Shown: positions 844 through 45,056 of the stretch, piece by piece | Numbering within the stretch: the first letter of the stretch is position 1 | How the letters are laid out: each line of letters opens with the position of its first letter | NCBI GenBank assembly: GCA_039091535.1 | Contig: JAWCLW010000002.1 | Coordinates: 46,690 to 110,689 of the forward strand | From: Candidatus Aenigmatarchaeota archaeon | GTDB lineage: Archaea; Aenigmatarchaeota; Aenigmatarchaeia; GW2011-AR5 | Direction of reading: 5' to 3' | Length of the DNA: 64,000 nucleotides | The notes under the pieces: model-generated | The model's database searches: none | What the model was told of the DNA's origin: nothing | Seen by the model: only the letters and a program-made list of their open reading frames with translations | Made by a program: the position numbers and the translations under genes

Positions 844-1761
844 ATGACACGAATTGAAATAACATTTCTTGGAACAACTGCAGGTATACCAACAAAACTG
901 AGAAATCATACTGCATTATATTTAAGATATCAAAGTGAAAATGAATTCTGTTATTTGTTTGACTGTGGTGAAGGAACACAGCGTCAGATTTTTTATTCTG
1001 GATTAAATTTCATGCGCATAAATGAAATTTTTATTACACATTGGCATGCTGATCATTTTGCTGGTTTACTAGGTTTATTAGAGACAATGAGTTTAGAAAA
1101 CAGAAAAGAACCTCTTACGATATTTGGGCCAGAGGCAGAAAAATTTGTTGATATAATTCTTGAATTGGGATACTCCACAAAGAATTTCGATGTTATTCCA
1201 AAAAATGTTAATTTTGAAGGTTCAGAGATAGAAAAATTATTAGAAACAAATGAATTCTATATTGCTTCTATTCCTGTAAGGCATAGTATACCGGCTGTTG
1301 GATATGCATTCATTGAGAAAGACAGAATAAAGATAGATAAAGATAAAATAAAAAAATTTGATCTCCCACCAAAAAGTATTATTTATAAAAAAATAAAGGA
1401 AACTGGTGAAGTGATTTTTAAAGGTAAAAGAATAAGACTTGAAGACATATCCATAATAGAAAAAGGTAAAAAAGTTGTATACTCTGGTGATACTATGGTT
1501 TGCAGAAATATCATAAAACTTTCTAAGGATGCAGATTTATTAATTCATGATTCCACTTTTTTTAAAGAAGATATATTTGATAATACTTATAAACACACAA
1601 CATTTGAGGATGTAATAAAAATAGCAAAAGAGGCAAATGTCAAAAATATAATATTAACGCATATCAGCAGACGATATCAGAACTTTGAAGAATTAAAAGA
1701 AAAAATAAAGGATTATTCTAATGTTAGAATTGCAAAAGATTTTATGAAAGTTATAGTTTGA
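844..1761 (+). CDS. rnz: ribonuclease Z (tRNA 3' endonuclease, short form)
   Basis: Metallo-beta-lactamase signature THWHADHFAG, N-terminal ITFLGTTAG, about 305 aa. Confidence 0.85.
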   Translation: MTRIEITFLGTTAGIPTKLRNHTALYLRYQSENEFCYLFDCGEGTQRQIFYSGLNFMRINEIFITHWHADHFAGLLGLLETMSLENRKEPLTIFGPEAEKFVDIILELGYSTKNFDVIPKNVNFEGSEIEKLLETNEFYIASIPVRHSIPAVGYAFIEKDRIKIDKDKIKKFDLPPKSIIYKKIKETGEVIFKGKRIRLEDISIIEKGKKVVYSGDTMVCRNIIKLSKDADLLIHDSTFFKEDIFDNTYKHTTFEDVIKIAKEANVKNIILTHISRRYQNFEELKEKIKDYSNVRIAKDFMKVIV

Positions 1762-43810: not shown

Positions 43811-44446
43811 TTAAGGTTTATGGCGGGTAACCATATAATAAGTACAATCTCCTTCGTTATCAACAATTGCCCAAAGCATGCGTGCTCTTATGTTATGAGC
43901 TAATCTTACAGAACGTGACATTTCTTGCCATGAGCAAGTATAATCTTCAGGAACAGCAAACACAATCCATTTTGTATGTTCTTTTGCAGATTTTGGACCT
44001 TTTTTTAATTGAACACCTCGTTCATAAACACGAAAATCACAACCAAATTTAAAACCAGTTCTTACCAATAATCCACGCTCTCTCAGATCTTCATAAACAC
44101 GATATCTCTCAGGAAATCTTCTATCTATTGATGTTGCATGATTATATAAGTCTTGGAATGTCATGATTTTCCCATCTTTTAGAATACGTATGCGGCCCCG
44201 CTTCAATAAAAGTAACGCTTCCACAAGTGCAAGCTCTAATCTATCGCCAATAATTTTTCCATAGTATCCCGGTTCATAAACATGTTCCTTATTTTCAATA
44301 GCAATAACTTTATTTTCTTCTAAAAATGTATCAACAACAACTTTAATCTTTTCAGGTTCAATATATTCTGGTTTCTTTTCTAGTTCCTCTATTATTTCTT
44401 CTTTCTTTTTTTTGCTCATAATACCACTAAATGTATTACTATACAA
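43811..44446 (-). CDS. endA: tRNA-splicing endonuclease (EndA), single-unit size class
   Basis: C-terminal catalytic-domain pattern RGLLVRTGFKFGCDFRVYERG...HTKWIVFAV...VRLAHNIRARMLWAIV, with a KE-rich N-terminal extension. Confidence 0.8.
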   Translation of the reverse strand: MYSNTFSGIMSKKKKEEIIEELEKKPEYIEPEKIKVVVDTFLEENKVIAIENKEHVYEPGYYGKIIGDRLELALVEALLLLKRGRIRILKDGKIMTFQDLYNHATSIDRRFPERYRVYEDLRERGLLVRTGFKFGCDFRVYERGVQLKKGPKSAKEHTKWIVFAVPEDYTCSWQEMSRSVRLAHNIRARMLWAIVDNEGDCTYYMVTRHKP

Positions 44447-44766
44447 AAAGAGTTTAAAAACATTAGTATGATTTAAGTTGGTATTTACTATATAAAATAA
44501 AAATTAACTATAAGTTTGAAATGAAATTAATAACTAATCTCACCTGTTGTGCGGTTGATTGTATAATTTCCAATATTTTATTTTTATTTATAATATCCCA
44601 GTTTCTTATGATACCATCACGTATATCAGCATTAACTAACAGCATATTGATTCTTTTTTTAGTATTTATGTCATTGATCATCAATTCCATATTTTTTTTT
44701 ATTTTTTGTTTAAGCTCTAAAATCTGATTTTCAATACAATTTTATTTTATAGAAAAATTTAAATGA

Positions 44767-44896
44767 TGGGACGAGTGGGATTTTCAGTTCTACTGTAAAT
44801 TCTACAACAGCAGTACATTTGAACCCACGACAGCACGGTCTTTAGCCCAACTTTATATGTTCAGCCGTGTGCTCTCCCGGACTGAGCTATCGTCCC
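44767..44896 (-). tRNA. tRNA-Phe(GAA) with two introns (19 nt in the anticodon loop, 37 nt in the T-loop)
   Basis: The reverse complement reads GGGACGA-TA-GCTC-AGTCCGGGA-GAGC-A-CACGG-[CTGAA+19 nt+GA]-CCGTG-CTGTC-GTGGG-[TTCAAAT plus 37 nt]-CCCAC-TCGTCCC-A. All stems are Watson-Crick. Confidence 0.75.
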
Positions 44897-44898
44897 AA

Positions 44899-45015
44899 CG
44901 CCCCCGGTCGGAAATTCGCAATTATGCTTTATGCATCTTTCTGTCTCGAACCGACGACCTTCTGGTTTCAATTATATTTAACAGCCAGATGCTCTACCAA
45001 CTGAGCTACAGGGGC
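44899..45015 (-). tRNA. tRNA-Asn(GUU) with two introns (12 nt at 37/38, 32 nt in the T-loop)
   Basis: The reverse complement reads GCCCCTG-TA-GCTC-AGTTGGTA-GAGC-A-TCTGG-[CTGTTA+12 nt+A]-CCAGA-AGGTC-GTCGG-[TTCGA+32 nt+TT]-CCGAC-CGGGGGC-G. It is separated from tRNA-Phe by 2 nt. Confidence 0.75.
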
Positions 45016-45056
45016 GTATTCTATTGTATAGAAGAATGAGAATTTAAAAATATTTG

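Follow-up and report, generated by a model that had tools for sequence, protein, structure and literature searches.

Among archaea, tRNA genes interrupted by several introns are best known from the Thermoproteales, and three introns are given as the maximum per tRNA gene in a 2014 review (PMC4033280), while the T-loop position 59/60 is listed as a non-canonical tRNA intron site (PMC4090602). For the DPANN archaea, Kaneta et al. 2018 (PMC5829648) linked an alpha4-type splicing endonuclease (EndA) carrying the 'L3' (Nanoarchaea/ARMAN-2) loop to more tRNA gene disruption and to incomplete tRNA predictions. The Aenigmatarchaeota are absent from that analysis (PMC5829648), and our literature search brought up no study of tRNA introns in this group.

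Here we report a tandem of tRNA-Asn and tRNA-Phe genes in an Aenigmatarchaeota genome, and on the whole the pair belongs to the already known type of archaeal multi-intron tRNA genes with bulge-helix-bulge (BHB) junctions. The genome resembles those of the Thermoproteales (Pyrobaculum, Thermofilum, Caldivirga; PMC4033280, PMC4090602) in having several BHB introns per gene and non-canonical sites including 59/60, and also in that interrupted genes are the majority, that standard finders miss genes, and that introns are gained and lost between close relatives. However, it is a DPANN genome of 0.67 Mb and 28% G+C, and its EndA is a single-subunit, alpha4-like protein, unlike the (alpha-beta)2 type with a crenarchaeal loop in Thermoproteales. 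With the L3-loop DPANN archaea (PMC5829648) it shares a single endA closest to the alpha4 enzyme of M. jannaschii, a large number of disrupted tRNA genes and a predicted tRNA set that is incomplete. In addition, a Lys-rich insert of six residues in the studied EndA is a candidate counterpart of the L3 loop (PMC5829648), although this EndA differs from the L3-loop enzymes (PMC5829648) by an Ala at the position of the catalytic Lys.

Structure and detection of the two genes

The window analysed here is the whole stretch of 64,000 nt, and all plain coordinates below are positions in it. Two tRNA genes lie side by side on its minus strand, namely tRNA-Asn(GUU) at 45015..44899 (117 nt) and tRNA-Phe(GAA) at 44896..44767 (130 nt), with a 2-nt spacer, TT, which in the sequence separates the discriminator of Asn from nt 1 of Phe (44898..44897, minus). 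A preliminary description had proposed two adjacent genes with this spacer and with two insertions in each, and the coordinates are exactly as it claimed. The Asn gene consists of exon 1 (nt 1-37, 44979..45015), an intron of 12 nt at the canonical site 37/38 (44967..44978), exon 2 (nt 38-59, 44945..44966), an intron of 32 nt in the T-loop at 59/60 (44913..44944), and exon 3 (nt 60-73, 44899..44912), which ends in discriminator G without an encoded CCA. The Phe gene consists of exon 1 (nt 1-35 in standard numbering, 44861..44896), an intron of 19 nt within the anticodon at 35/36 (44842..44860), exon 2 (nt 36-59, 44818..44841), an intron of 37 nt in the T-loop at 59/60 (44781..44817), and exon 3 (nt 60-73, 44767..44780), with discriminator A and again without an encoded CCA. 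All of these segments are on the minus strand. Both first exons are assigned by a cloverleaf parser and by ARAGORN on the spliced sequence, to which the BHB scan is added for Phe, and exon 1 of Asn has 85-100% identity to intron-less orthologues. The second exons are assigned by the BHB scan, orthologue alignment and the parser, the third exons by the sequence together with the parser, and the introns by the BHB scan and folding, with additional support from the parser for the first Asn intron.

Standard programs do not see these genes. ARAGORN calls neither of them on the unspliced sequence with introns allowed, Rfam misses both at the gathering score, and a permissive Rfam search aligns Asn only up to the T-loop, with 26.7 bits. 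A scan for G+C islands as tRNA exons returns 903 islands and is far too unspecific. We therefore rely on our own SPLITS-like cloverleaf parser, in which a segment is skipped only where its junction forms at least a relaxed BHB motif; the parser uses T-arm and acceptor prefilters, allows introns of up to 130 nt, and passes over genes whose introns interrupt nt 49-58 or the acceptor stem. From the raw sequence it parses Phe in one way only, placing a 19-nt intron after nt 35 and a 37-nt intron after nt 59, and it returns one parse of Asn length for Asn, where a 12-nt intron follows nt 37 and a 32-nt intron follows nt 59; two further Asn parses, of 193 nt, extend into the Phe gene. Both genes score 22, within the range of 18-25 of the 36 tRNA loci found in the whole-genome run, whereas the reversed, non-complemented genome yields through the same pipeline, as a chance control, six loci with a maximum of 15.0. 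Once the four segments are removed, all four stems are intact in both cloverleaves, U8, A14, G18G19, U33, R37, G53, U55, C56, A58 and C61 are all present according to the parser, and ARAGORN recognises the in-silico spliced sequences as tRNA-Asn(gtt) and tRNA-Phe(gaa). Cloverleaf, parser and spliced ARAGORN agree that Asn and Phe are true tRNA genes, each with two introns of archaeal type.

T-loop introns

We scanned every splice pair for an outer helix h, a 4-bp central helix H between two 3-nt bulges and an inner helix h', taking the cut after the second bulge nucleotide. Both T-loop junctions form strict hBHBh' motifs at 59/60: in Asn, H is TTCG/CGAA with 4/4 pairs, h is the 5-bp T-stem and h' has 3 bp, and in Phe, H is TTCA/TGAA with 4/4 pairs, h is again the 5-bp T-stem and h' has 2+7 bp. 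Folding of the Asn T-arm fragment gives this motif as the minimum-energy structure (-10.4 kcal/mol), and the Phe conformer, at -16.3 vs -16.6 kcal/mol, is 0.3 above the minimum. This bears out the earlier claim of one T-loop intron in each gene. As for its details in Asn, the 32-nt insertion is real, but the cut had been placed after TTCGA, while the BHB puts it one base further 3', after TTCGAG (59/60), which gives a mature T-loop of TTCGAGT. With all four junctions considered, a strict or a relaxed motif can be folded at every one, as the preliminary description had asked to be checked.

Further evidence comes from a set of 28 independent 59/60 introns, 13 from the studied genome and 15 from relatives. 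Nucleotide 57 and its intron partner are G:C in 12 and A:T in 12, with mismatches in 4 and no cross combinations, and this covariation shows that the junction helix at 59/60 is under selection. A common origin of the Asn and Phe T-loop introns was also considered and is rejected, their alignment score being 10 vs a shuffled 99th percentile of 19. Elsewhere in the genome some T-loop introns of different genes are closer to one another than all shuffled controls, with scores of 42 for Ser/Gly and 35 for Ser/His (both at 59/60) and 33 for Trp/Leu (57/58 by the parser) vs a null maximum of 28; the loci are G000 C1:216867-217139, C11:3323-3474, C4:4287-4396, C1:227984-228236 and C1:215181-215407. 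These similarities are a hint that introns may have spread from gene to gene, as has been described for Thermoproteales.

Anticodon-loop introns

The introns of the anticodon loops have relaxed motifs. At Asn 37/38 the motif is hBH, in which H has 3/4 pairs with one U.U mismatch, h has 5 bp and the inner helix is absent; the 12-nt insertion claimed at this site is recovered by both the BHB scan and the parser. At Phe 35/36 the motif is HBh', with H of 4/4 pairs, h of 1 bp and h' of 2 bp. Actually, cuts at 34/35, 35/36 and 36/37 all yield the same mature Phe loop, CUGAAGA, and among these three equivalent cuts the BHB scan finds a central helix of 4/4 pairs only in the 35/36 register. The 35/36 fold melts two G:C pairs of the anticodon stem and has in isolation an unfavourable energy of +4.0 vs -7.7 kcal/mol for the minimum. 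We infer that the first Phe intron has a relaxed motif with the exact junction at 35/36.

Since 37/38 is by far the commonest site of archaeal tRNA introns, a Phe cut at this canonical position has to be weighed as well. It would leave C37 and the loop CUGAACA, and it can appeal to those Phe orthologues that possess an anticodon-loop intron, which they have at 37/38, and to ARAGORN, which likewise accepts the product spliced there. Nevertheless, every Phe orthologue has G37 and the loop CTGAAGA, and the central helix in the 37/38 register has 2/4 pairs by hand count vs 4/4 for 35/36, so that the canonical cut is very improbable. The cut must indeed precede nt 37, as had been proposed from the single sequence, and we keep the 35/36 junction.

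Introns in orthologues

The deduced mature Asn and Phe sequences were compared with related loci by a spliced aligner. The exon sequence is conserved among the orthologues, while the insertions vary in number from 0 to 5 and in position, and the intron-less orthologues match the exon-joined sequence of the studied genome. The unique Asn genes comprise 8 without introns, 14 with a single intron, 6 with two and 2 with four; for the unique Phe genes the corresponding counts are 25 without introns, 13 with one, 10 with two, 4 with three, 3 with four and 1 with five. The introns recur in the D-loop (14-16 and 20/21) and at 30/31, 37/38, about 42/43, and 59/60.

Some relatives apparently carry four or five introns in single Asn or Phe genes, namely L076 (Phe 934-1154, Asn 654-837), L017, L023 and L025, which would exceed the three allowed for in the 2014 review (PMC4033280). 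For the Phe gene of L076 a BHB-compatible parse with five introns exists, in which the junctions of the anticodon arm, in its 3' half, are uncertain. De novo parsing of genes with four or five introns has partial success, and the parser favours fewer introns.

The tRNA gene set of the genome

No other Asn or Phe gene is found in the 88%-complete assembly by BLAST with the mature sequences, ARAGORN, Rfam or the parser, and a search for GTT and GAA anticodon stem-loop motifs elsewhere gives just A+T-rich chance matches. The uninterrupted Asn or Phe gene elsewhere in the genome, which would have made the present pair suspect, is thus not present in the assembly. Among the 36 tRNA genes that can be parsed in the studied genome, 5 are uninterrupted, 11 contain a single intron, 13 contain two, 4 three and 3 four; that is, 31 are interrupted and 20 have two or more introns. 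A T-loop intron occurs in 15 of the 36, exactly at 59/60 in 13. Several anticodons of this inventory are ambiguous where introns adjoin the anticodon, and two loci with the unused anticodon AAA in the top parse have alternative parses (CGG and others).

One may ask whether the two genes are decaying pseudogenes with junk insertions, the functional copies being elsewhere or unassembled. The assembly is just 88% complete and both genes are rejected by standard finders, which would fit such decay. However, besides the lack of a second Asn or Phe copy in the assembly, all four cloverleaf stems are intact in both genes, the exons are conserved with respect to the orthologues whereas the insertions vary in site and sequence, the BHB helix covaries, and the same kind of interruption is found in 31 of 36 tRNA genes. 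Decay is therefore extremely improbable, and we regard the pair as functional. It is also typical for its genome and phylum, not exceptional. The arrangement had been called unusual, which does not hold with 59/60 introns in 13 and multiple introns in 20 of the 36 genes, and with the short-spacer tandem kept in relatives.

Co-transcription of Asn and Phe

The Asn-Phe order is conserved in related genomes, and the spacers in 29 unique related pairs are of 2-10 nt in 12, 11-50 nt in 5 and longer in 12; those of 2-10 nt are mostly CT, CTT, CTTAA and similar. Upstream of Asn, at -35..-26 of its nt 1, there is the box TTTTTAAATT (45041..45050, minus), likely the TATA/BRE promoter of the pair. This role is deduced from the recurrence of a TTTAAA-type box, which is present upstream of many tRNA genes of the genome at variable distance (-25 to -43). 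In addition, T is found at -1 in 27 and A at -2 in 25 of 35 tRNA genes of the studied genome. A T5 tract in the sequence 12 nt past Phe (44751..44755, minus) is likely an archaeal terminator. There is neither a T-tract between Asn and Phe nor a TTTAAA box upstream of Phe, inside Asn. In the relatives L006, L012 and L027, moreover, the spacer is of 2-5 nt and Asn has no T-loop intron, which leaves no room for a separate Phe promoter. Because of the lacking T-tract and TTTAAA box between the genes, the T5 tract after Phe and these relatives, co-transcription is the best reading and is likely, as had been suggested from the 2-nt spacer.

Alternatively, Phe could be transcribed alone from a promoter in the T-loop intron of Asn, without co-transcription and with a Phe transcript that is perhaps leaderless. 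The AT-rich Asn intron does supply the stretch ATAAAGCATAATT at -36..-24 of Phe nt 1, and RNase P RNA is undetected in the studied genome, but ATAAAGCATAATT is unlike the TTTAAA-type box found in front of other tRNA genes, the genome encodes Rpp29 and Rpp30, and RNase P RNA can be detected in 40 of the 61 related genomes. Furthermore, in the relatives with 2-5 nt spacers and an Asn gene without T-loop intron, only G+C-rich exon lies at -25..-35 of Phe. An internal promoter is thus quite unlikely, and the two genes are very probably transcribed together.

Closely spaced, co-transcribed tRNAs are found in the yeast tRNA-Arg/tRNA-Asp pair and in bacterial tRNA operons. The Asn-Phe precursor is like them in its spacing of a few nucleotides and its release by RNase P and 3' processing, and differs in that it would contain four BHB introns, including two in T-loops. 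The T-loop is normally used by RNase P and RNase Z for recognition. A second probable co-transcribed pair in the genome is located at G000 C1:75556-75836 (minus), where 38 nt separate tRNA-Asp(GUC) from a downstream tRNA with two introns and an ambiguous anticodon (UAC or UUU).

The splicing endonuclease and its neighbourhood

The gene endA for the tRNA-splicing endonuclease lies on the same strand about 320 nt downstream of Phe (43811..44446, minus; Pfam PF01974 and PF02778), and the ATG at 44419 is probably its real start. It is a single-copy gene, as PF01974 matches the genome only once at E<=10, and one copy is found in nearly all family-level relatives. In the sister family f7 a protein of 400-485 aa with two endonuclease catalytic domains occurs besides the normal endA (G042:C2:64588-65061, G048:C16:11421-11900, G052:C50:15116-15592), and this may be a fused second endonuclease. 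The studied EndA agrees with the alpha4 type in its size (about 180-210 aa) and in having both an N-terminal and a catalytic domain, and its best match among solved structures is the M. jannaschii alpha4 EndA; the single gene copy suggests a putative homotetramer (alpha4). Its six-residue Lys-rich insert is located between the catalytic Tyr and His and aligns without gaps to N. equitans EndA-alpha, and the insert motif K[KR]GPK is found in all Aenigmatarchaeota EndAs aligned (window 43811-44446; loci L038-L117). Where M. jannaschii has its catalytic Lys (K156), 78 of 83 aligned sequences have Ala and 2 have Ser, with Lys only in the two reference sequences included. The Tyr-His-Lys triad expected of an alpha4-type EndA is thus incomplete here, with Tyr and His invariant and Lys replaced. 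EndA must nevertheless be active because 31 of 36 tRNA genes need splicing, and we assume its activity from this necessity.

Of 80 Aenigmatarchaeota loci retrieved by way of the EndA protein, 49 have a tRNA-Phe gene upstream of endA in the same orientation, among them L064, L089, L102, L105, L109, L110, L114 and L117. The start of endA is at most 40 nt from the tRNA-Phe 3' end in 17 loci, and the gap is 1-4 nt in 7, mostly without a T-tract between. This layout suggests that, in the loci with gaps of 1-4 nt, tRNA and mRNA may be co-transcribed and a nearly leaderless endA mRNA may be produced by RNase Z. In the studied genome the gap from tRNA-Phe to endA is about 320 nt (44447-44766) and contains the T5 tract and a 60-codon ORF. 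The latter (MELMINDINTKKRIN...; 44508-44690, minus) is on the same strand as the genes on either side.

A more far-reaching reading starts from the many Aenigmatarchaeota in which tRNA-Phe and the endA start codon are 1-40 nt apart and have no terminator between them, and takes Asn-Phe-endA as an ancestral transcription unit of the phylum, in which RNase Z would free a nearly leaderless endA mRNA and EndA would work without the catalytic Lys, perhaps via the Lys-rich insert. Taken as a whole we find this rather doubtful, and the studied genome seems to have lost the link through a 320-nt insertion carrying the T5 tract. If the reading is true, endonuclease supply would be tied to the processing of the enzyme's own multi-intron substrates.

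Processing of the transcript

The genome encodes EndA, RtcB, RNase Z (window 856-1752), a CCA-adding enzyme and the RNase P proteins Rpp29 and Rpp30. RNase P RNA is undetected in the 88%-complete assembly, both with Rfam RF00373 and by nhmmer with the relatives' sequences, and is taken to be unassembled or too divergent. Another explanation, in which the organism would live without RNase P like Nanoarchaeum and Phe would have its promoter in the T-loop intron of Asn, was considered and rejected, given that Rpp29 and Rpp30 are present, that most relatives have RNase P RNA and that the intron has no TTTAAA box.

It is highly probable that the pair represents the only, functional genes for tRNA-Asn(GUU) and tRNA-Phe(GAA) of this genome, served by a joint pathway of transcription, splicing and end processing. 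In such a pathway, Asn and Phe would be transcribed together from the promoter of TTTAAA type some 30 nt before Asn, and transcription would end at the oligo-T tract just past Phe. The single-subunit EndA would excise the four introns, two with strict (59/60) and two with relaxed motifs (Asn 37/38 and Phe 35/36), and RtcB would join the exons. RNase P would cut the 5' end of Phe and RNase Z would cut after the Asn discriminator, whereby the UU spacer is released, and both 3' ends would be completed by the CCA-adding enzyme. After the first cut by RNase P or RNase Z, the other enzyme must remove the 2-nt extension. The order in which we have set out these steps is one that we infer. The ordered cascade of RNase P, RNase Z and endonuclease that had been read into the locus is implied by nothing tested here; the archaeal splicing endonuclease recognises local BHB structure, so that splicing may come before or after the end cuts.

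Implications

The Asn-Phe pair leaves the knowledge of tRNA introns in general unchanged. As a locus it is a compact natural substrate, in which one transcript would hold two tRNAs with a 2-nt spacer and four introns, some with strict and some with relaxed motifs. On it one could study how relaxed motifs are dealt with by a single-subunit endonuclease whose active site is unusual, and whether T-loop introns must go before RNase P and RNase Z act. For the organism itself, standard tools report 13-16 tRNA genes, whereas the actual number is at least 36. As standard tools miss intron-rich genes, the tRNA sets of Aenigmatarchaeota only seem to have gaps, which are artefacts of such genes.
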